Assembly: GCA_964650645.1 (NCBI GenBank)
Contig: CAZYUH010000001.1
Coordinates: forward strand, 639,202 to 703,201
DNA: 64,000 bases
Direction of reading: 5' to 3'
Origin: an uncultured Candidatus Saccharibacteria bacterium
GTDB taxonomy: Bacteria; Patescibacteriota; Minisyncoccia; Phycocordibacterales; SBAW01
Under the pieces are notes generated by a model. The model was given only the letters and a program-made list of their open reading frames with translations. It made no database searches and was not told the origin of the DNA. The translations under genes were made by a program, and so were the position numbers. This document shows, piece by piece, positions 3,221-46,965 of the stretch (positions are counted from its first letter, which is position 1; each line of letters starts with the position of its first letter).

Positions 3221-4660
3221 TTAAACGGGTAAATTAATGGGCGCGTCGGAGCGGCGCGAAGGCACGCGGTCGAGCGCCGGGGTCTGCACCGCCGAGCTCG
3301 GGAAGTGCCATATCGTCGCGAGCTCTTCGGTGTTGAGGAGCGTCGGAACCTGGTCGTACGGCACGTTGAAGTACGCGCGGTGCTTGTAGCGGAAGAGCAG
3401 GTTGCGGCGCACGCGGTTCTCGCGGATGCCGTTGTAGTCCTGCCACGGGTAGTCGAAGTCGCTGTTGCCGCGCGTGGGCATGATGCCGTTGTAATTCGGC
3501 TGGTTGTATGCGTCGAAGAACTTGACCACGCTGCCTATGTTGGTGCCGTTGAAGCTCCCGTCGTTGCGGCCTATGTACAGGACGCGTATGCCGCACTCGA
3601 AGTACAGCTTGGTAAGCGAGCGCTCTATGGCCTCCACTTGCAGCTTCTCGCCGCCGGAGAGAAGCGTCGAGCCGCGGGCGCCCACCCTCTTCTTCTCCGC
3701 ATCGTCGGTGACGAACGATTGGGCGCGCTTGATAGCCTGCTCGGTTATCTTGCCTATTTTCTTCTTCGCGCCGTCCTTCCACGGGTTGCCGGGCGCCGGG
3801 AACCCGTACCACCAATTGGTGCCGCCGAGGCTGTTGCTCTTGGGGGCCCTCATGATTATCTGCATCCACAAGTGCTCCCCTTGCCCTATCTGGCCCAAAA
3901 ACTCGACCAGGTTCGAGATGGGGTCGACCTGTATCTCGGGCTTGTCGGGGCTCTTGTCGAGCCCGTAGTCTATGTAGGTCTTTATGGGTAGGGCGTCGGC
4001 GTCAGCCGTTTTCTTGAACTCGGCGCCCCACAGCCCGTAGTCCTGCGCGTTGTACGGGATGCTGTCGGCATAATCGGCGACCTCCGTGATGCGCGCTTCG
4101 GGGAACTGCCCGTAGAGCTTCGCTTCGAGGATATTCTTCCAGCCCTTGCGGCAATGGAGGTAGAACTTGACCTGGCCCTCGTGGCTCGCGATTTCGAGCG
4201 TGAATATGGCGCGGGTCTTCCCTTCCCATATGCGCGCGATGAACGTGCTCTCGCCGCCCGAGTTGTACATGGCGGAAAGGAACAGCTCCATCGAAAGCGG
4301 CGACTTGGTCACTTCCGGCGGCAGCTGGATCTCGAGGAGGACGTGCTCCTGCTTGAACCAGAACATGTACTGGATGTAGTGTATCCACGTTATCCAGAAA
4401 AATATGGCGAGCCCCACGGGGAGCCACACCGGCGAGAGCGCGATGACCATGGCGAGCGTGCCTGAAACGGCGGCCGGGTCGGTGCCGCCCGCGACAATGA
4501 GCAGGACCACGAGCGCCGCCGGCATCACGACCAGCGCCTCGAATCCCCAGCCGCCTATCCATTCTTCAACCGCTGCCGCGCCGTCGTGCGTCCAGAACAA
4601 GAACGCCTTCTTGTACCAGGGCTGTTCTGAAAAAGGTACGCCGCCCGCGCCTTGTGCCAT
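3221..4660 (-). CDS. Hypothetical membrane protein (N-terminal TM helices + ~350-aa soluble domain)
   Basis: ORF track 3221..5119 trimmed to the ATG at 4660-4658 (MAQGAGGVPFSEQPWYKK) because the upstream part overlaps a divergent plus-strand gene; no family recognised. Confidence 0.5.
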   Translation of the reverse strand: MAQGAGGVPFSEQPWYKKAFLFWTHDGAAAVEEWIGGWGFEALVVMPAALVVLLIVAGGTDPAAVSGTLAMVIALSPVWLPVGLAIFFWITWIHYIQYMFWFKQEHVLLEIQLPPEVTKSPLSMELFLSAMYNSGGESTFIARIWEGKTRAIFTLEIASHEGQVKFYLHCRKGWKNILEAKLYGQFPEARITEVADYADSIPYNAQDYGLWGAEFKKTADADALPIKTYIDYGLDKSPDKPEIQVDPISNLVEFLGQIGQGEHLWMQIIMRAPKSNSLGGTNWWYGFPAPGNPWKDGAKKKIGKITEQAIKRAQSFVTDDAEKKRVGARGSTLLSGGEKLQVEAIERSLTKLYFECGIRVLYIGRNDGSFNGTNIGSVVKFFDAYNQPNYNGIMPTRGNSDFDYPWQDYNGIRENRVRRNLLFRYKHRAYFNVPYDQVPTLLNTEELATIWHFPSSAVQTPALDRVPSRRSDAPINLPV

Positions 4661-28479: not shown

Positions 28480-28721
28480 CCCTTAGCGTAGCATGGGTTT
28501 TAGGCAGGTTGCCCGCCGGCCCGGCATTGCTGCGGCCGTCCACCAGTACGAAAAAACCTGCCTCAAGGCAGTCTTTCGTGTCTTTGTGGTCACAGATACT
28601 CCAGTCGCCGCCGCGACCGGATTTCCGCGCCCCCGACTCGCTCCCGCGCCTGCTGGCGCGGGGCCCGCTCCGTCTTCCACAAACGCGAAAGTGCATGCCC
28701 CGGCATGCACTTCTCGTCGCT
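28480..28721. repeat. tRNA-linked hairpin-array element, locus D (partial family member)
   Basis: Contains the family motifs ccgtccaccagtacgaaaaaacctgcctcaaggcag and ttgtggtcac plus nested hairpins (gcatgccccggcatgc); lies immediately 3' of tRNA-Ala(GGC). Confidence 0.5.
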
Positions 28722-28723
28722 TG

Positions 28724-28796
28724 TGGACCCTACCGGGATCGAACCGGTCACCTCTTCCATGCCATGGAAGCGCTCTACCAAATGAGCTAAGGGCCC
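28724..28796 (-). tRNA. tRNA-Ala (anticodon GGC)
   Basis: Minus strand GGGCCCTTAGCTCATTTGGTAGAGCGCTTCCATGGCATGGAAGAGGTGACCGGTTCGATCCCGGTAGGGTCCA; G3:U70, anticodon loop AT-GGC-AT; CCA not encoded. Confidence 0.85.
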
Positions 28797-35845: not shown

Positions 35846-36523
35846 TGTGCCCATGCGCCGCTCACGCGCGGCGTACTCCTCCAGCACCGCCTCCAGGTCC
35901 TTTTTTGAAAAATCGGGCCAGAGCTTGTCTAAAAAGAACAGCTCGCTGTAGGCGCCCTGCCACAGGAGGAAGTTCGACAGCCGCTTCTCTCCGCCCGTGC
36001 GAATGATAATGTCAGGGTCCGGCATCTGCGCGCTCCAGAAACGCGCGCGCAATGAGTCCTCGGTTATCTCCTTCCCTTCGGCGGCGAGCGCGCGGGCCGC
36101 CTCGGCTATCTCGGCGCGCCCGCCGTAGGACAGGCAGCACCAGAGCGTCATCTGCGTGTTATGCGCGGTCGCGCGCTCGGCATCAGCCATTCCCTTTTGA
36201 AGCTCGTCGCCGAAGCGCTCCCGCTGGCCGGCGAACCTGATTCGGATACCCTCGCCGCCCATGTCAGCCGCGTGCTTCTGCATGTTTTCCCTGAACAGCT
36301 CCAGCAGGTAGGCGATTTCGGCCGGCTCGCGGCTCCAGTTCTCCGTCGAGAGCATGAATGCGGCAAGATGGCGGATGCCGAGATCCCGCGCATCAAGGGC
36401 CGCCTGGCGCAGCGTATCCTGCAGGCCGGCGCGGTGCCCTTCGAGCGAGGGCAGGCCTTTCTCCTTCGCCCAGCGGCGGTTGCCGTCGAGTATGATGCCC
36501 ACGCATGCCGGTATACGCTCCAT
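35843..36523 (-). CDS. uppS: Ditrans,polycis-undecaprenyl-diphosphate synthase
   Basis: GIILDGNRRWAKEKGL, ENWSR, RTGGEKRLSNFLLWQ motifs. Confidence 0.85.
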   Translation of the reverse strand: MERIPACVGIILDGNRRWAKEKGLPSLEGHRAGLQDTLRQAALDARDLGIRHLAAFMLSTENWSREPAEIAYLLELFRENMQKHAADMGGEGIRIRFAGQRERFGDELQKGMADAERATAHNTQMTLWCCLSYGGRAEIAEAARALAAEGKEITEDSLRARFWSAQMPDPDIIIRTGGEKRLSNFLLWQGAYSELFFLDKLWPDFSKKDLEAVLEEYAARERRMGT

Positions 36524-36537
36524 ACGCGGATATAACG

Positions 36538-36810
36538 CTACCAGGCTATGCGGAAGTCACCGTACGCCTGCCCGGGCTCGCGCCACGAGGCGTCTACCGC
36601 GTCGACACGCGACAGGAAGGAGCCTTTGCGCAGGCGCGCGAGCAGGGCTTCAAGCTTATCCTGCGGCCCCTGGGCCAGCACCTCGACCGTGCCGTCTTTC
36701 AGGTTCTTGGCATACCCCGCAAGCCCGAGGCGGCGCGCGTTGCGCGCAACAAAGTCGCGGTACATGACCATTTGCACCCTTCCGCGCACGATGCAGTGCA
36801 GTTCCTTCAT
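36538..36810 (-). CDS. acyP: Acylphosphatase
   Basis: 90 aa; IVRGRVQMVMYRDFV...GYAKNLKDGTVEV matches the acylphosphatase fold signature. Confidence 0.75.
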   Translation of the reverse strand: MKELHCIVRGRVQMVMYRDFVARNARRLGLAGYAKNLKDGTVEVLAQGPQDKLEALLARLRKGSFLSRVDAVDASWREPGQAYGDFRIAW

Positions 36811-36825
36811 ACTGGGACAGTATAG

Positions 36826-37103
36826 CGCAATGCCTTGCAGGGTGGCATTGCTCCGGCCGTCCAGTTTTGTCGTATGTGGTCACAAGTTCGTTTGCGCCGT
36901 CGCGCAAACGCCTCGCGACCCCGGCTCGCCGTCCCGCAAGTGCGGGACATGGCTGCGCCTTCCACTTTGTGGTCAGGGATATTTTCAGCGCCGTCGCGCT
37001 GAAAATTCCACGACCCTGGCTCGGCTGTTTTGCCTGCTGGCAAAACATGCCTCCGCCTTCCACCAGTACGAAAAAATCTGCCTCAAGGCAGATTATTTTC
37101 GTC
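36826..37103. repeat. tRNA-linked hairpin-array element, locus A
   Basis: Series of perfect tetraloop hairpins (GTTTGCGC-CGTC-GCGCAAAC; GTCCCGC-AAGT-GCGGGAC; TTTTCAGCGC-CGTC-GCGCTGAAAA; GTTTTGCC-TGCT-GGCAAAAC) separated by ccactttgtggtca-type flanks, ending in terminator ctgcctcaaggcag+T-tract abutting the tRNA 3' end. Confidence 0.6.
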
Positions 37104-37177
37104 TGGTGGACCCTGCGAGAATCGAACTCGCGCCTGTGCAATGCGAATGCACCGTTTTACCACTTAACTAAGGGCCC
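37104..37177 (-). tRNA. tRNA-Ala (anticodon CGC), CCA encoded
   Basis: Minus strand GGGCCCTTAGTTAAGTGGTAAAACGGTGCATTCGCATTGCACAGGCGCGAGTTCGATTCTCGCAGGGTCCACCA; G3:U70; D-arm atypical. Confidence 0.7.
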
Positions 37178-37178
37178 C

Positions 37179-37267
37179 GGTCGGGATGCCGAGAATCGAA
37201 CTTGCCTCCGGATACACGCACCCGGCGGCAGACCGGATACGCACCCTGCCATATTCGTTCGGAAGCT
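37179..37267 (-). pseudogene. tRNA-like fragment: duplicated tRNA-Pro 3' end (23-bp exact copy of T-arm/acceptor) plus degenerate body
   Basis: ggtcgggatgccgagaatcgaac at 37179-37201 is identical to 37269-37291; no complementary 5' acceptor strand and the T-stem is broken. Confidence 0.35.
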
Positions 37268-37341
37268 TGGTCGGGATGCCGAGAATCGAACTCGGATTAT
37301 ACGCACCCGAAGCGTACGTAATACCATTATACCACATCCCG
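37268..37341 (-). tRNA. tRNA-Pro (anticodon CGG), CCA encoded
   Basis: Minus strand CGGGATGTGGTATAATGGTATTACGTACGCTTCGGGTGCGTATAATCCGAGTTCGATTCTCGGCATCCCGACCA. Confidence 0.75.
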
Positions 37342-37482
37342 ACCAAGCTTCCGACCGGGGCGTACGGCGCCAAGCTACCGCACCCCGATGTGCGAGAACC
37401 TACAAAATATAGCGCAAAAAATGACTTTGCGCACTTGCGCAGGCAAGAAAAAAACCGCCGGCCAAAAGGCCGGCGGCTGTGT

Positions 37483-38361
37483 TCACGCCCCCGCGCGCTC
37501 GACGATGTCCTCGATGAAGCGCGGGAGGGCGAACGCCGCACACTGGACCCGCGGGGTCCAGTACTTGGTCTTGAACCTGCCCGCGAGCGTGTAGCGCCCG
37601 TCGAGCATGTCGGCCGACACCGCCGGAATGAACCGGTCGCTCGCCCACCCTATCGCCATGTGCCCGCCGACGTACGTCGGAATGGCGGCGACATAGCATC
37701 CGGAATGCCCGAACAGGCGGCTGAAATGCCCGAGCGACGACGCCAGCTCCTTCTCCTGGAAGAAGGGAACCCCGTTCTGGGTTACGAGGATGCCGCCGCG
37801 CTTAAGGGCGCGCAGGCACGCTCCGTAGAACTCAAAGGAAAACAGCACCTCGCCCGGCCCCTGCGGATCGGTCGAGTCGACGAGTATGACGTCGAATTCC
37901 TCCGAGTGCGCTTTCGACAAGTACTCCATGCCGTCCATGATGACCGGCTCGAAGCGCGGGTCCGCGAACGCCGGCCCGGCGAACTCCGGGAAGTGCTCCC
38001 GTGAGAATTCGACGACGCGCCGGTCAATTTCGACCTGCACGATGCGCCGCACGTTGCGATGCCTGATTGCCTCCTTGGCGATGCCGCAGTCGCCGCCGCC
38101 GATAATGAGCACGTCCGTCGGATTGTCGTGCGCCATGAGCGGCACATGGGACATCATTTCGTGGTAGACGAACTCGTCGCCCGAAGTTACCTGCACCGCG
38201 CCGTCGAGCATGAGCATCTTGCCGTAGTGCGGATGCTCGAACAGGGCAAGGTGCTGGTGCCCGGTATGCTCTTCGTGAAGCATCCGAAACGCCTTGTAGA
38301 ACGTCTGCACGCCCTTGTCGTTGTGCAGGGTTTCGCTTATCCAGTCGCACTGTCCGCTCAC
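37483..38361 (-). CDS. speE: Polyamine aminopropyltransferase (spermidine synthase)
   Basis: VLIIGGGDCGIAKEAIRH...VDSTDPQGP motifs; GTG start. Confidence 0.85.
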   Translation of the reverse strand: MSGQCDWISETLHNDKGVQTFYKAFRMLHEEHTGHQHLALFEHPHYGKMLMLDGAVQVTSGDEFVYHEMMSHVPLMAHDNPTDVLIIGGGDCGIAKEAIRHRNVRRIVQVEIDRRVVEFSREHFPEFAGPAFADPRFEPVIMDGMEYLSKAHSEEFDVILVDSTDPQGPGEVLFSFEFYGACLRALKRGGILVTQNGVPFFQEKELASSLGHFSRLFGHSGCYVAAIPTYVGGHMAIGWASDRFIPAVSADMLDGRYTLAGRFKTKYWTPRVQCAAFALPRFIEDIVERAGA

Positions 38362-38394
38362 TCGTCTCTCCTTTTGTATGGGCTCTGGAATAGG

Positions 38395-38616
38395 AATACT
38401 TTATTTTTTAAGGATTGTCAAGATTTATTTTGCCGTCCCGCCAGTGCGGGACATGGCTGCGCCCTGCACATGTTATTTGTGGTCAGGGATATTTTCAGCG
38501 CCGTCGCGCTGAAAATTCCACGACCCTGGCTCGGCTGTTTTACCTGCTGGCAAAACATGCCTCCGCCCTGCACATGTACGAAAAAACACCCAGCAGTGGG
38601 TGTTTGTTTCGTCATG
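38395..38616. repeat. tRNA-linked hairpin-array element, locus B (shares ~130 nt near-identical block with locus A)
   Basis: ccgtcccgccagtgcgggacatggctgcgcc...tttgtggtcagggatattttcagcgccgtcgcgctgaaaattccacgaccctggctcggctgtttt(a/g)cctgctggcaaaacatgcctccgcc; differs from locus A by 2 substitutions. Confidence 0.6.
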
Positions 38617-38690
38617 TGCACCCTTCAGGATTCGAACCTGAGGCCTCACCCGTGTGAAGGGTGCGCTCTAACCAACTGAGCTAAGGGTGC
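38617..38690 (-). tRNA. tRNA-Val (anticodon CAC)
   Basis: Minus strand GCACCCTTAGCTCAGTTGGTTAGAGCGCACCCTTCACACGGGTGAGGCCTCAGGTTCGAATCCTGAAGGGTGCA. Confidence 0.8.
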
Positions 38691-38768
38691 GTCCGTTCAT
38701 GATACGCAAAAGGCGGCAAAAGAAAAAGCGCCGGCCCAGGGGGCCGGCGCTTCGGCGGCGCGAGGGGG

Positions 38769-39134
38769 CTACACGCCCTTGCCGCGCAGCTGCTCGCTTA
38801 TGACGGCGCGCGACGCCTTGAACGCATCCCGCAGTATGGGGATGCAGGCCTCGGGAGCGGTGTTGCCGCACATGAACACGTCGAGCGCGGCAAAGCCGCT
38901 CTCGGGCCAGGTATGGATGGAGATATGGCTCTCCGCCAGGACCGCAACGCCCGATATCCCGCCGTTCTCCTCGAACTCGTGCGTGTGGATATGCAGGAGC
39001 GTCGCGCCGGACGCCTCAACGCACCGGCGGAACGCCTCTTCTATAAGCGCGCTGTCGCGCAGGCTGGCCGGGTCCGCGCCGTGCAGGTCCAGGAGGATAT
39101 GGGCCCCCGCGCACCGCACGCCGTCGCGCACCAT
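38769..39134 (-). CDS. speH: S-adenosylmethionine decarboxylase proenzyme (SpeH-type, class 1A)
   Basis: ESHISIHTWPE self-processing motif; start chosen at MVRDGVRCAGAHILLDLHG (ORF track starts at 39200). Confidence 0.75.
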   Translation of the reverse strand: MVRDGVRCAGAHILLDLHGADPASLRDSALIEEAFRRCVEASGATLLHIHTHEFEENGGISGVAVLAESHISIHTWPESGFAALDVFMCGNTAPEACIPILRDAFKASRAVISEQLRGKGV

Positions 39135-39312: not shown

Positions 39313-39840
39313 ATGGGTCCCGCATCGCTCCCCGGCACCATAGTGCTCGCAATCGCCGCGCTGGCGGTGTTCCTCTGCTACCTTGTCGTTTTAAAGTACT
39401 CGGAGCCGGACAACTTCCGGCGCACGCGGCTTTCGATGACCGCGTTCTTCTTCTTCATCGTCGCCACGCTCAGCCTGTCGTTCTGGAAGTACGCGCTCGC
39501 GACGCTCCCCTACGCCGCCCCCGCGTTCGCCGCCGGGCTGTGCCTGGGCTACCTGGTGGGCGTGCGCGGCGCCGAGGAAAGGCTCAGGAAGGAGGGGCGC
39601 GCTCACTACCGCGAGCACTTCGCCCACGTGCACGCGCGAGGGCTTGCAGAGCTGTCGTGGTGGACTTTCGTCAACTTCTACACCATAGGGGGCGCCTTGG
39701 TGCTCATAAACCTCGTGGGCTTCAGCACTGTGCTGGTGCCGAGCGAAGGCTTGGCTATAGCCACCAGCGCGGTGGGCGCGCTCCTGTTAGGAAGCATTGC
39801 GCCCTATCTCATGCACCTGTGGAGCCTCAGCCGGCGCTAG
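39313..39840 (+). CDS. Membrane protein, hypothetical (5 TM helices)
   Basis: 175 aa; GC3-rich; divergent from speH. Confidence 0.4.
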   Translation: MGPASLPGTIVLAIAALAVFLCYLVVLKYSEPDNFRRTRLSMTAFFFFIVATLSLSFWKYALATLPYAAPAFAAGLCLGYLVGVRGAEERLRKEGRAHYREHFAHVHARGLAELSWWTFVNFYTIGGALVLINLVGFSTVLVPSEGLAIATSAVGALLLGSIAPYLMHLWSLSRR

Positions 39841-39858
39841 CGCGCCCGTTCTGCGCGA

Positions 39859-40218
39859 TCAGTCGTTGGATTGCTGAGGCGTTATGACGCCGCCGATGAA
39901 CGGGACTTGCGGCCCGTGCTTCATGTGCGAGAGGTCGTGCATGACCCAGAGCGTCCCGCCCGCGACGATGCACACCACCAAAAGCGCGAAGCACAGCGCC
40001 ACCAGGTTGAAGCGGGGGCGCTCCTCCTCGTCCATGTGCAGGAAGAACGAAAGCTGGACGCAGAGCTGGATAAGCGCGAACAGCACGAACGCCGCGTACA
40101 GCATCGCGGGCGAAAGGGGCGCGCTTCCCTCGTCGCGCATCCACAACGCCACTAAAGGCAGTACGGTGAGCGCCACCGAAAGCACGAACCCTGTTGCGTA
40201 TGCGGCGAGCTTTTTCAT
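39859..40218 (-). CDS. cyoD: Cytochrome o ubiquinol oxidase subunit IV
   Basis: 119 aa from [12 protein letters not shown], 3 TM helices; last gene of cyo operon; ATGA overlap with cyoC. Confidence 0.7.
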   Translation of the reverse strand: MKKLAAYATGFVLSVALTVLPLVALWMRDEGSAPLSPAMLYAAFVLFALIQLCVQLSFFLHMDEEERPRFNLVALCFALLVVCIVAGGTLWVMHDLSHMKHGPQVPFIGGVITPQQSND

Positions 40219-40790
40219 ACGGAGCCGAAGAGGTAGACGAAGGTGAATATGAATATCCAGATGATGTCGAGGAAGTGCCAGAAGAGCCCGAGGCACGCGA
40301 GCTTGCGCACTGTCCCCTCCTGAAGGCCCCGCAGGGCGACGTGCGCCATGGCGACAAGCATCCACACGCTCCCCGCCGCCACGTGCAGGCCGTGCGTTCC
40401 CAGAAGCGCGAAGAAAGAAGAGAGGAAGGCGCTGCGGTCGGGGCCGTGGCCCTCGGCAATGAGCTTGGCGAACTCGGCGGACTCCATGCCGAGGAACCCG
40501 AGTCCGAGGCACAGCGTCGCCGCGAGCGCCAGGAGCGTAAGGCCTTTTCTGCCCGCATGCGCGGCCAAAAGCGCCAGCCCCATCGCGAAGCTCGACGTTA
40601 GGAGGAGCATCGTCTCGGCGAGCGCGTACGGCAGGTCGACGATGTCTCCCAGCGAGGGGGCGCCGAAGGTCTCCGCGCGCAGGACCGCGAAGGTCGCGAA
40701 CAGCGCCGCGAACAGCACGCAGTCGCTCATGAGGTACACCCAGAAGCCGAACGTGGCCTTGTCAGTCATGTGCGCGTCGTGCCGTGTCAT
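40215..40790 (-). CDS. cyoC: Cytochrome o ubiquinol oxidase subunit III
   Basis: [27 protein letters not shown] matches the CyoC N-terminal region; ATGA overlap with cyoB stop. Confidence 0.85.
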
Positions 40791-42703
40791 ATGCGTATGC
40801 GGTGCTCTATGCGGGTACTGAATGAGCGCGCGGCGAGGCAGGCGATGATTCCGGCGAGCGAGAGCGCCGCGAGCCACCACATGTGCCACACCATCCCGAA
40901 GCCCAGCGCCCCGGCGCATACCGCTATCGCGAGCCCCATGGGCGTCGGCGCCGGCATCTCTATCTCCCTATGCGGCTCGGGCACCGTCATGCCGCCCTTG
41001 TCCTTCTTGAACTCCCAGTACGGGTCGCGCGCATGCACGAGGGGGATGGAGTCGAAGTTGTGCGCGGGCGGCGGGCTTGATACGGACCATTCGAGCGTGC
41101 GGCCGTCCTTCCACGGATCGTTGCCGGCCGGGTTCTTCTTGCGGTCGCGGACGCTCACGTACAGCTGCACGGCCTGCATGAGCACGCCAACCACGGTAAT
41201 GGACAGCCCGATGCCCGCCACGATAAGCAGCGGCTGCCAGGCGGGCTCGACGACGCTGAGCCTGCGCGTCGCGCCCATGAGGCCGAGCAGATACAGCGGC
41301 ACGAACGTCACGAAGAACCCGACCAGCCAGCACCAGAAGGCGCGCCTTCCCCACTTCTCGTCGAGCATGAAGCCGAAGAGCTTGGGGAACCAGTACGAGA
41401 ACGCCGCCAAGTACCCGAAGAGCACGCCGCCTATTATCATGTTGTGGAAGTGCGCCACCAAAAACAGCGAGTTGTGGAACTGGAAGTCTATGCCCGGTAT
41501 GGCAAGCAAAACGCCGGTCATGCCGCCGAGAATGAACGTGGAGAGGAACCCCATGAACCACAGCATCGGGGTCTTGAACGTGATGCGGCCCCGGAACATC
41601 GTGAAGAGCCAGTTGAACACCTTCACGCCGGTGGGGATGGAGATAACCATGGTCATGATGCCGAAGAAGGCGTTGACGTTCGCGCCCGCGCCCATGGTGA
41701 AGAAGTGGTGCACCCACACGATGAACGAGAGGAAGGTGATGGCCATGGTCGCCAGCACCATGGAGGTGTAGCCGAAGAGCCGCTTGCGGGCGAACACCGG
41801 CACCAGCTCCGAGAACACGCCGAACGCCGGCAGGATGAGTATGTAGACCTCGGGGTGCCCCCACGCCCATATGAGGTTGACGTAGAGCATCGCGTTGCCG
41901 CCCAGGTCGGTCGTGAAGAAGTGCATTCCGAATATGCGGTCGAGCGAGAGGAGCGCGAGCGTGGCGGTGAGTATCGGGAACGCGAATATGACGAGGATCA
42001 TCGAGGCGAGCGTCGTCCAGGCGAACACGGGCATGCGCATGAGCGTCATGCCGGGCGCGCGCATTTTGAGAATAGTCACCAGGAAGTTCACGGCCGCCAG
42101 GAGCGTGCCCGCGCCCGCTATCTGGAGCGCCCATATGTAGTAGTCGACGCCCACCCCGGGACTGAACTGGAGCTCCGAGAGCGGCGGGTACGCCAGCCAC
42201 CCGGTAGCGGCGAACTCGCCCACCACCAAAGACAGGTTGATGAGCATCGCGGCGGCGGCCGTGAGCCAGAACGACACCGAGTTGAGGAACGGGAACGCCA
42301 CGTCGCGCGCGCCGATGAGGAGCGGTATCGCCAGGTTGATGAGCGCGAACATGAACGGCATGGCGACGAAGAAGATCATGATGACGCCGTGCGCGGTGAA
42401 TATCTGCGCGAAATGGTCGGGGCTCAGGTAGCCCTCGCTGCCGGGCACCGAGACGGCCTGCTGGGCGCGCATCATGATAGCGTCGGCAAGCCCGCGCAGG
42501 CCCATGACGGCGGCAAGGATGAAATACATGACCGCGATTCTCTTGTGGTCGACGGTCGTGAGCCACTCGCGGTAGAGCCACTTCCAGCGCTTGAAGTACG
42601 TAATCGCCGCGACGACGGCCGCTCCCCCGAGCACCACCATGAGCTGGGGCACCGTCTCTACCGGGCCGTGCAGGAAATCCTTTAGCGTGAGTATGCCGAA
42701 CAT
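40787..42703 (-). CDS. cyoB: Cytochrome o ubiquinol oxidase subunit I
   Basis: Near-collinear with E. coli CyoB ([25 protein letters not shown], heme-copper His ligands). Confidence 0.95.
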
Positions 42704-42705
42704 GG

Positions 42706-43548
42706 TTAATGGTGGTGCTCCTTCATGCCCGCGTCCATAGCATGGGCATTCTGCCCGCCCGCGTGCATGCGCGCGTCCATAAACTGCATCATAACAGCAT
42801 TAAACAGATCGGGCTCTACCGCGGCGAACGACGCCTCCGGCGCCGACGCGCCCGGCTTGGCAAGCTCCTTGTACGCGCTAAACGAGAGCGTGCTCGACGC
42901 GGCCCTCGTGCGGGCGACCCAGTCATCGAACTCCGCCTCGGGGACGGCGCGCGCGGCGAACTTCATCGAAGAGAAGCCGTCGCCGCTGTAGTTGGCCGAA
43001 ACGCCCGCGTACGTGCCGGGCTCGTTTGCCACCAAATTGAGCTCGGTGGCCATGCCGGTCATGGCGTATATCTGGCCGCCCAGCTGGGGTATCCAGAACG
43101 AGTTCATCGGCGCGTCCGCGGTAATGCTGAACTCAACCGGCCTGTCGACCGGCATCATGACGTAGTTCACCGTCGCCACCTCCTGCTCCGGATAAATGAA
43201 GAGCCATTTCCAGTCGAGCGCGACGACCTGCACTTGGAGCGCCGGGCCGCCCTCGAGCGCGCGGGTCGGGTCGAGCCGGTGCGTACTGCCCCACGTGAGC
43301 GCGCCCAGGACGAGTATTATTTCAAGCGGTATCACCCACCACACCAGTTCTTCGAGCCTGCCGTGCTCCCACTCGGGCGTGTATTCCGCCTTCTTGTTGG
43401 AAGCGCGGTACCTGTACGCGAAGAAGAACAGGAGGAAGTAGACCGGCACCGCCACTATGAGCATGAACTCGACCGCGTGGATCATGAGCGCGCGCTCGGC
43501 CACGCCGATGGCGCCCTTGGGATCGAGGACGGTGAACAGGCTCCACAT
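42706..43548 (-). CDS. cyoA: Cytochrome o ubiquinol oxidase subunit II
   Basis: LDPKG...[18 protein letters not shown]...[10 protein letters not shown] matches CyoA; lacks the CuA ligands as expected for quinol oxidases. Confidence 0.85.
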
Positions 43549-43627
43549 GGGTACATAATACCCTTGAATTTGAGCATTTCCCGGGGCTATTTATCAGACC
43601 ACAAATGTTTTATTAAGGAATTACTTT

Positions 43628-44068
43628 CTATTGCTCTTCGGGGCTTCTTGGCGCCTTACCTGTAAATATATAAGCTAACGCAACGCCAGCCAGCGGGATT
43701 GCACCCGCAATCAAACCTGCGCCGTCCTTTCCTTGCGCAATCAAATTAGCACCTTGCCATATACCAAAAAGTACAATAACCACAGCGGCAATTTGACCTG
43801 AAAGTCTATTAAAGCCATCGAACCACAGCAATCGACTCTCCATCCTCTGTCTGTGATTAGATTGGCCTACTGCCATTTCAACTATTGTTCTCCCACACCC
43901 AGGAGAAACTCTATCGTACTCGGCAAGCATCTCAGGAGGAGGTAAGGGGCCTTGGAAAATATTTCCAACTACCCTGGGGGCATGAGAAGGTATTGGCTGC
44001 CCTTCAACTGAAACCCGGTCGTCTTTTTTAGAGACGTCCTTATTTGCCCCGCTGGTGTCCTTCGCCAT
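43628..44068 (-). CDS. DUF2335-family membrane protein
   Basis: PPPEMLAEYDRVSPGCGRTIVEMAVGQSNHRQRMESR then two TM helices; encoded in a locally AT-rich islet. Confidence 0.55.
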   Translation of the reverse strand: MAKDTSGANKDVSKKDDRVSVEGQPIPSHAPRVVGNIFQGPLPPPEMLAEYDRVSPGCGRTIVEMAVGQSNHRQRMESRLLWFDGFNRLSGQIAAVVIVLFGIWQGANLIAQGKDGAGLIAGAIPLAGVALAYIFTGKAPRSPEEQ

Positions 44069-46555: not shown

Positions 46556-46892
46556 CGCGCGCCTATCTGGATATACAGCCGTCCACTTTATGGTCACAAG
46601 TTCGTTTGCGCCGCCACGCAAACGCCGCGTCCACCTAGCGCCTGCCGCAAAGCGGCATCGGCGCTTGCCTCCGGCACCGGATGAAAGGCAAAGCAGTTTG
46701 CCTTTCATCCCCGCCTCGCGGTTTTGCAAGTGCAAAACATCGCTGCGGCCGTCCACTTTGTGGTCACAAGTCGAATTTTTTCGTCAAAAAATTCGCTCGC
46801 GACCCCGGCTCGCCGTCCCGCCAGTGCGGGACATGGCTGCGCCTTCCACAAAACCAGAAAACCTGCCTCAAGGCAGGTATTTCTGTGTTTTG
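46556..46892. repeat. tRNA-linked hairpin-array element, locus C (longest copy)
   Basis: Two ccgtccacttt(g/a)tggtcacaag units each followed by a hairpin, plus a GGATGAAAGGCAAA-GCAG-TTTGCCTTTCATCC perfect 14-bp stem, a gtttgcgccgccacgcaaac hairpin and a GAATTTTTT-CGTC-AAAAAATTC hairpin; shares cgcgaccccggctcgccgtcccgccagtgcgggacatggctgcgccttccac with locus A; terminal cctgcctcaaggcagg+T-tract. Confidence 0.6.
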
Positions 46893-46965
46893 TGGACCCT
46901 ACCGGGATCGAACCGGTCACCTCCTCATTGCAAATGAGGCGCTCTACCAGATGAGCTAAGGGCCC
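46893..46965 (-). tRNA. tRNA-Ala (anticodon TGC)
   Basis: Minus strand GGGCCCTTAGCTCATCTGGTAGAGCGCCTCATTTGCAATGAGGAGGTGACCGGTTCGATCCCGGTAGGGTCCA; G3:U70. Confidence 0.85.

Follow-up and report, generated by a model that had tools for sequence, protein, structure and literature searches.

The near-identical blocks that follow tRNA-Val(CAC) and tRNA-Ala(CGC) in the window (the whole 64,000-nt stretch of DNA analyzed here) consist of members of a tRNA-clamped hairpin repeat family that is widespread in Patescibacteria and apparently undescribed. Judging from comparison of the available sequences, the family is old and constrained, and its individual arrays turn over fast. In the interpretation favored here, to which an even chance can be given, the shared block represents a full and a truncated copy of such tRNA-3′-end units that would have been copied at the DNA level, in a manner resembling the REP/BIME repeats.

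All relevant features are located on the minus strand, and four of the five tRNA genes in the window carry arrays (loci A-D, Table 1). In the tRNA sense, an array consists of the tRNA, a clamp hairpin (P1), one or more ~95-nt units, denoted X and formed by the hairpins P2 and P3, and a partial unit. A covariance model of the family detects five full and three degenerate units in the window, all on the minus strand and all 3′ of these four tRNAs. P1 is a long hairpin in which the 5′ arm comprises nucleotides N70-N71-C72-A73-C74 of the tRNA and an A-rich trailer, and the U-rich 3′ arm ends with GUGNN. The arm accordingly starts inside the tRNA (TGCAC in tRNA-Val, TCCAC in tRNA-Ala), and the 3′ arm closes with the exact complement (GUGCA and GUGGA, respectively); in locus B, where the 5′ arm is formed by tRNA nucleotides 70-74 and the trailer, the apex loop is CUGC and GUGCA is the terminal linker. 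P2 is built from an outer stem of 3 bp, the conserved internal loop G-S-A/G-A and a stem that varies, and P3 has an invariant GGUCG/UGACC base with one G.U pair, a bulged A and a variable top, followed by ACAA. P3 has a basal stem of 7 bp, after which comes A-C-A in the CAC/A context that is found in tRNA genes. Adjacent units are joined by a linker of 3-16 nt; because a unit terminates in GACC-AC-A, which is similar to the acceptor end of a tRNA, the following linker can clamp on it, which would allow tandem arrays to form. In locus C, a full second P1 follows unit C1.

Table 1. Positions in the window of the tRNA genes, clamp hairpins and X units of loci A-D.
Feature	Position	Strand	Support or remark
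tRNA-Val(CAC), locus B	38616-38690	-	ARAGORN; Rfam tRNA, 70.3 bits
P1 clamp hairpin, locus B	38569-38620	-	Inverted repeat; P1 pairs covary in 74 loci
Unit B1 (linker, P2, P3 and ACAA)	38477-38573	-	Covariance model, 97.5 bits, E=4e-18; near-copy of A1
Duplicated linker ACATGTGCAGGG and truncated unit B2 (P2 only)	38432-38473	-	Covariance model, 16.3 bits (P2 part)
tRNA-Ala(CGC), locus A	37104-37177	-	ARAGORN
P1 clamp hairpin, locus A (TCCACCA... / ...TGGTGGA)	37059-37110	-	Inverted repeat
Unit A1	36967-37063	-	Covariance model, 99.8 bits
Unit A2	36874-36965	-	Covariance model, 84.1 bits; subtype other than A1
A3, terminal partial unit (linker and P2-like hairpin)	36825-36864	-	Directly 5′ of TATACT box and acyP start
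Locus C, whole	28503-28796	-	
tRNA-Ala(GGC), locus C	28723-28796	-	
P1, locus C	28676-28727	-	
Unit C1	28584-28680	-	Covariance model, 68.7 bits
Second full P1, locus C	28539-28589	-	
Partial unit C2	28503-28538	-	
Locus D, whole	46569-46965	-	
tRNA-Ala(UGC), locus D	46892-46965	-	
P1, locus D	46845-46896	-	
Unit D1	46758-46849	-	Covariance model, 84.4 bits
D2, composite or degenerate	46588-46756	-	Covariance model, 37.7 and 16.9 bits
Partial unit D3	46569-46586	-	

The arrays of loci B and A run up to speE and acyP, respectively, with B2 abutting the speE promoter (TTGACA, 38412-38421). In loci A and B, a promoter scan of positions 36500-39000 found nothing promoter-like within P1 or X, so that a promoter inside P1 is unsupported. 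P1 itself has the GC-rich stem and the U tract of an intrinsic terminator, with a T-run of at least four in 64 of the 74 aligned loci, and many transcripts may therefore end ahead of X. P1 of locus A scores as terminator-like on both strands, and in two related loci (L097 and L005; relatives' loci were compared as 8-kb slices) there is no U tract and the stem runs on into the tRNA. Clamps without X also exist (L118 Ala-cgc, L094 Leu-gag, L078 Gly-tcc). In the composite D2, P2 and P3 are separated by an insert of ~80 nt that includes a P1-like hairpin (loop CUGC) and another P2-like start; the units here appear to be nested or fused, and the same composite is found in L002 (160-340).

Pairwise alignment of the A1 core (36967-37057) with the B1 core (38477-38567) yields 90 identical positions out of 91, and P2 of A2 (36928-36959) is identical to P2 of B2 (38432-38463) at 31 of 32 positions. 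The initial sequence-only reading of this DNA had described segments 38431-38560 and 36926-37060 as a near-identical block of ~130 nt with 2 substitutions. That count is correct for the two unit parts; it does not extend to the linker that divides them (10-16 nt), which contains two further substitutions and a 6-nt indel. The same follows from the repeat finder, in which the pairs 36966-37076/38476-38586 (111 nt, 95%) and 36928-36965/38432-38469 (38 nt, 92%) are spaced by 1510 and 1504 nt, respectively, so that a 6-nt indel separates the two matching blocks. On the minus strand, the linkers are GTGGAAGG and, at locus B, ACATGTGCAGGG, and each of them fits the local tRNA. The surroundings of the blocks are indeed unrelated, as originally proposed: the tRNAs differ, the genes downstream encode Spermine_synth and Acylphosphatase domains, respectively, and the flanks align poorly (in global alignments, 116 matches, 30 mismatches and 108 gap columns for 200 nt on the gene side, and 67 matches, 22 mismatches and 27 gap columns for ~100 nt on the tRNA side). 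Over the whole unit, A1 and B1 match at 94 of 97 positions, compared with only 65-80 for the remaining unit pairs within the window and a median identity of 64% between loci, and their similarity is thus far above chance. Among the loci compared, the top match of A1 or B1 in any other species shows 80% identity. The variable upper stem that A1 and B1 have in common occurs in no other genome compared, and a scan of metagenomes for the exact A1 upper stem gave no matches.

Comparison with close relatives points to rapid turnover of the arrays. In the sister strain L002, in which the speE DNA is 98.9% identical, locus B is the same save two substitutions, both inside B1. Locus A of this strain is identical up to the end of the tRNA and then continues with a different P1 and a D1-like unit, with a 100% identical A1 at the second array position; locus D also differs from that of the window. 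The number of copies per tRNA among close strains ranges from 0 to 3, and a near-identical subtype (96.8%) follows different tRNAs in L112 (Ile) and L086 (Lys). Empty orthologous spacers exist in the sense that, in L005 and L006 (SpeE 75% and 72% identical, respectively), the speD-speE spacer lacks tRNA-Val along with the array and consists only of a terminator and a TTGACA promoter, a promoter context shared with the window. The upper stem private to A1 and B1, the array differences in L002 and these empty spacers together support recent intragenomic copying of A1/B1, probably by gene conversion or tandem duplication. To this extent the proposal of recent copying survives, although near-identity alone would be weak evidence for it given that A2 is kept at 96% across species. 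Specifically, A2 and the unit following tRNA-Ala(CGC) in L005 are 95.7% identical, despite 75.9% identity of the speE DNA and only 58% of P1, which implies strong constraint or vertical conservation of A2; vertical conservation, the outcome that the sequence-only reading had opposed to mobility, is thus closely approached for this unit. Transposition is not supported by the direct repeats that flank the units (14 nt at B1, 10 nt at A1), which are of unequal length and amount to the duplicated linker. The linkers themselves were not copied and still match their own tRNAs, so either the converted tract would be limited to P2-P3 or selection maintains the clamp.

The constraint on the family is best seen in a structural alignment of 74 loci, with a consensus of 43 pairs. 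Paired cells amount to 95.1%, compared with 38-45% (about 43%) when the partners are slid, the covariation score is 0.65 (at most 0.13 when slid), and compensatory double changes are found in 34 of the 43 pairs; none of 500 shuffles reached the observed pairing and covariation values. The clamp covaries with the tRNA both at nucleotide 70 (CG31/UA23/GC11/AU7) and at nucleotide 71 (GC50/CG17/UA4/AU3). Across genomes that range from 29 to 62% GC, 25 positions are invariant. The single G.U pair in the base of P3 is present in all 74 loci, which assigns the structure to the tRNA-sense strand. Outside the two conserved columns, the helices are nearly all Watson-Crick, and G.U (50 cases) barely exceeds A.C (33 cases), so that the RNA-specific signature is weak, and DNA hairpins or palindrome correction fit equally well. 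Alignment columns 128, 135 and 170 (window positions 38525, 38518 and 38485 in B1) show perfect three-way covariation, G/C/G in 48 and A/U/C in 25, and define two unit types. In type 2 units, an alternative pairing of AGGG with YCCU could free the GACCAC tail. The loops of P1 (CUGC) and P2 (AGCA) do not covary, so that kissing between them is unsupported, and a coding reading (GGAG...AUG within P2) is ruled out by the compensatory variation of the downstream stem.

A two-part pattern derived from the unit core matched at least 118 stretches in a collection of species-representative genomes, of which at least 104 are Patescibacteria MAGs, or unclassified MAGs, bearing the X unit; among the matches listed, 14 are chance matches to high-GC coding DNA of other phyla in which the rest of the unit is absent. 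The named carriers include Nomura-, Kaiser-, Adler-, Zambryski- and Taylorbacteria, Paceibacterota and 'Saccharibacteria'. The GC content of the unit-bearing loci is 29-62%, and that of the window is 60%; UvrA encoded in the window is 73% identical to UvrA of one unit-bearing MAG. A tRNA gene on the same strand ends within 600 nt upstream, typically at 75-97 nt, in 89 of the 127 pattern matches listed, and according to an HMM of the unit, of the 146 units in the loci listed, 97 come after a tRNA and 13 after a preceding unit. The unit is carried by 91 of the 223 tRNA genes in these loci, which were sampled because they contain it. The tRNAs involved (Ala, Arg, Lys, Val, Ile, Glu and Leu) end with C72-A73-C74; X follows none of the 21 tRNA-Pro genes in the loci listed, which have G72, nor any of the 12 tRNA-Cys and 9 tRNA-Ser genes.

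The order tRNA-Val(CAC)-P1-X-tRNA-Pro-tRNA-Pro is found in five genomes (L026, L062, L084, L097 and L118), and at four of these sites X belongs to one subtype, with compensatory changes in P2. In these five genomes, a gap of 18-62 nt separates the end of X from the next tRNA, so that X is very likely part of the operon transcript, as far as gene arrangement can tell. Other placements occur as well. In four loci, P1 and X lie on the strand opposite to the tRNA and extend outward from its 5′ end (L102, ~635-800; L109, ~4049-4260; L126, ~3756-3967; L081, ~1500-1705), with the clamp pairing with the reverse complement of the tRNA 5′ end; in L093 (750-900), P1 and X follow the terminator of an ORF. 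Two units have a mere remnant of a tRNA 3′ end upstream.

No protein family recurs beside the units in a clustering of 885 neighboring ORFs, the largest cluster of which, from only 12 loci, resembles a housekeeping GTPase, and a scan of viral contigs for the unit pattern gave no matches. Searches of the window, 18 related loci and an AT-rich example against Rfam 15, at gathering and at permissive thresholds, returned only tRNAs, and over positions 36700-38800 nothing relevant was found at E<=10. The literature searched contains no description of such a tRNA-linked element.

Several observations concern the neighborhood of the arrays. The tRNA-Pro(CGG) gene (37256-37357, minus strand) has a leader (37335-37357) and a trailer (37256-37278) that are complementary over 23 nt (96%) and whose pairing lengthens the acceptor stem by ~16 bp; L006 repeats this design but not the sequence, which points to a processing stem. 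Between tRNA-Pro and tRNA-Ala (37179-37267, minus strand) there is a decayed tRNA-like segment, the last 24 nt of which are identical to the tRNA-Pro 3′ end. This copy (37179-37202) is not an insertion scar; it belongs to a decayed second tRNA-Pro gene, because an intact tRNA-Pro(GGG) occupies this place in L062, L084, L097 and L118. The window, which is Patescibacteria-like at 60% GC, also contains a cytochrome bo3-type oxidase operon (~39800-43700), with COX1 (40787-42703) 85% identical to that of L005; in L005 (664-1635), an RVT_1 reverse transcriptase gene adjoins the oxidase operon.

Many tRNAs in these genomes have flanks of a further kind, denoted type Y, as observed in L099 (2720-2980), L129 (3830-3960), L122 (6370-6585), L084 (5410-5620) and L062 (1820-1975). 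Here the 3′ arm of P1 continues as an antisense of tRNA nucleotides 54-70, in which GGAWTCGAAA is the antisense of the T-loop; X or another module comes next, and after it tRNA nucleotides 57/58-74 are present a second time in direct orientation, a copy with which the tRNA 5′ end pairs in the RNAfold prediction. A conserved second module that takes the slot of X in type Y flanks, Z (...ACCTTGAGTAT...hairpin...GAAAGGTGTAC...CCTGTAAGG...), is located 3′ of tRNAs in L069 (380-530), L072, L109, L119 and L020 and has no Rfam match.

Among the known systems, the closest resemblance is to the REP/BIME repeats of Enterobacteria and Pseudomonas, which are associated with RAYT transposases. Like X, these are short, imperfect extragenic palindromes located 3′ of genes in multiple, often tandem copies and, like X as interpreted here, they are transcribed with the upstream gene, act as terminators or stabilizers and are homogenized within a genome. 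However, X lacks the GTAG motif and has invariant 5′ positions GUG / AGSC instead, its unit combines two different hairpins with an invariant junction and is bound to tRNA ends via a covarying clamp, and its conservation extends over a whole class instead of a genus, with no RAYT known to accompany it. The ends of IS200/IS605 elements and class C group II introns share with X the position at the foot of a terminator-like hairpin, the strand specificity and a short base-pairing 'guide' beside the hairpin, and the GUG...AC boundary of X is reminiscent of the group II GUGYG...AY; X, in contrast, contains no transposase, reverse transcriptase or ORF. Relative to IS200/IS605, X has two hairpins and a fixed CAC context, and the exceptional placements described above, seen in the 8-kb slices, fit targeting at the DNA level. 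A group II intron can be dismissed: a unit of 95 nt is much too short for one, P2/P3 lack the geometry of domains V/VI, and the Rfam intron models (RF00029, D1-D4) do not match the unit even at E<=10. The 3′ external transcribed spacers of tRNAs (3′ETS-leuZ of E. coli) are likewise non-tRNA RNAs from the precursor 3′ of a tRNA, but RNAs of this type come from a single locus and are unstructured or simple, whereas X is modular, repeated, deeply conserved and paired with the acceptor end of its tRNA. Finally, the clamp resembles P1 and the internal guide of group I introns and the antiterminator bulge of T-boxes in that it pairs, and covaries, with the upstream exon or tRNA 3′ end; unlike these, it lacks a catalytic core, a specifier and the context of an aminoacyl-tRNA synthetase gene, and the window loci are devoid of a 3′ exon.

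Other candidates fail on their defining features. The R′′/L′′...L′/R′ boxes of integron attC sites, with GTTRRRY, are absent from the consensus. CRISPR arrays and type III antitoxin repeats do not agree with units that abut via a 3-16-nt linker and have speE, acyP and tRNAs as neighbors. ARAGORN and RF00005 detect no tRNA besides the five genuine ones, and the likeness of X to a tRNA, tmRNA or tRNA-like structure is limited to the base of P3 and the ACA tail. Inspection for H/ACA, C/D-box, K-turn, T-box and group I elements found their defining features missing. The group I introns described at anticodon position 35/36 (PMC13011429) are unrelated to X.

Based on the above, a REP/BIME-like history and function of the modules can be outlined. 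They would be transcribed together with the tRNA, as suggested by the relatives in which X precedes the next operon tRNA, and would be multiplied and homogenized at the DNA level by tandem duplication of linker plus unit and by gene conversion between arrays. The identity of A1 and B1 would then reflect a recent conversion, limited to P2-P3 because the linker must match the local tRNA. The modules would work in cis: P1 would act as a terminator/insulator, its duplex would also define the 3′ end of the tRNA, and the GACC-ACA end of the unit, by mimicking a tRNA end, would let the next clamp form. Truncated units and the variation between 0 and 3 copies per tRNA in close strains argue against an indispensable function in cis, and the four outward units, the one after an ORF terminator and the two at tRNA remnants are left unexplained by co-transcription with a tRNA.

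These irregular placements are among the observations that fit an unlikely alternative, namely that X, together with P1, forms a non-autonomous mobile element of DNA, comparable to REP/REPIN or IS200/IS605-derived palindromes. It would be moved in trans by a single-strand DNA transposase that is encoded elsewhere and recognizes hairpins, with the GUGNN linker as a guide selecting NNCAC, the end of a tRNA gene, and with its own CCAC end recreating the target and so giving rise to tandem arrays. Such an element would account for the multiple copies, including ones 99-100% identical at different tRNAs or array positions, for arrays that differ between strains otherwise 99% identical, for the truncated copies and for the subtype shared by tRNA-Ile and tRNA-Lys of different genomes. 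Watson-Crick-only stems with conserved irregularities, the fixed C72-A73-C74/GUG pairing together with the absence of X after the tRNA-Pro genes listed, and the lack of a protein encoded in cis also agree with it. However, no candidate transposase was identified among the neighboring ORFs of the 8-kb slices, the unequal direct repeats are accounted for by linker duplication, invariance of 25 positions across such a range of GC content is unusual among REP-like families, the unit is kept at the same tRNA across species with 96% identity, and the clamps without X imply that the clamp is not imported by X. A more distant relation to mobile DNA, in which the arrays are scars (att sites) of integrative elements, starts from the fact that phages and genomic islands integrate at tRNA 3′ ends, and the direct second copy of the tRNA end in type Y loci does look like an attL/attR pair. 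This origin is nevertheless very improbable: there is neither integrase nor cargo, the tRNA-end repeats in the window are inverted (the clamp) rather than direct, covariation shows the core structure to be conserved throughout a whole class, and type Y loci carry an antisense of tRNA nucleotides 54-70, which att sites do not.

The structural data invite readings at the RNA level. X could act in trans as a stable small RNA, or as the RNA component of an RNP, and exploit tRNA promoters and processing enzymes, a route of biogenesis for which tRNA-snoRNA dicistrons and MALAT1-mascRNA are precedents. RNase P/Z and the CCA-adding enzyme would free a P3 minihelix ending in ...GACC-ACCA, a mimic of the acceptor arm, and the copies would evolve in concert as a multigene family. 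The deep conservation of the core, with its invariant G.A-type internal loop, bulged A and G.U pair, the three-way covariation, which suggests a tertiary contact, the tRNA-like base of P3 and the location of the unit within tRNA operons all speak for such an RNA. It is made improbable by the tolerance of partial units, by variable stems that differ between subtypes and have no obvious target, by the very low usage of G.U, by the copies without a co-oriented tRNA, which remain outside this explanation, and by the lack of a recurrent partner protein among the neighboring ORFs. Somewhat broader, and rather doubtful on present evidence, is the idea that clamp and X form a novel nucleic-acid-guided tRNA-end module. 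It could be a cis-acting 'anti-acceptor' RNA switch that sequesters tRNA nucleotides 70-74 (at most 54-74, in type Y loci) and releases an acceptor-mimicking minihelix to be matured by tRNA-processing enzymes, or else a mobile hairpin element that encodes no protein in cis and whose short guide is rewritten to suit each tRNA end. If true, either version would amount to a Patescibacteria-wide system without a described counterpart.

The ultra-small Patescibacteria (CPR bacteria) possess tiny, streamlined genomes and comprise a third of bacterial diversity. Despite this streamlining, 91 of the 223 tRNA genes in the sampled, unit-containing stretches bear a conserved, structured, acceptor-pairing appendage of 150-300 nt. 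The arrays explain the rearrangement of tRNA flanks between strains, by which assembly, binning and synteny analysis can be misled. If the modules are an RNA device, they would point to an unknown step in the maturation or quality control of tRNAs throughout this share of the bacteria; if they are a mobile element, they would represent a new, base-pairing route to targeting tRNA genes. Either way, covariation supports them as a candidate for a new family of RNAs or repeats.
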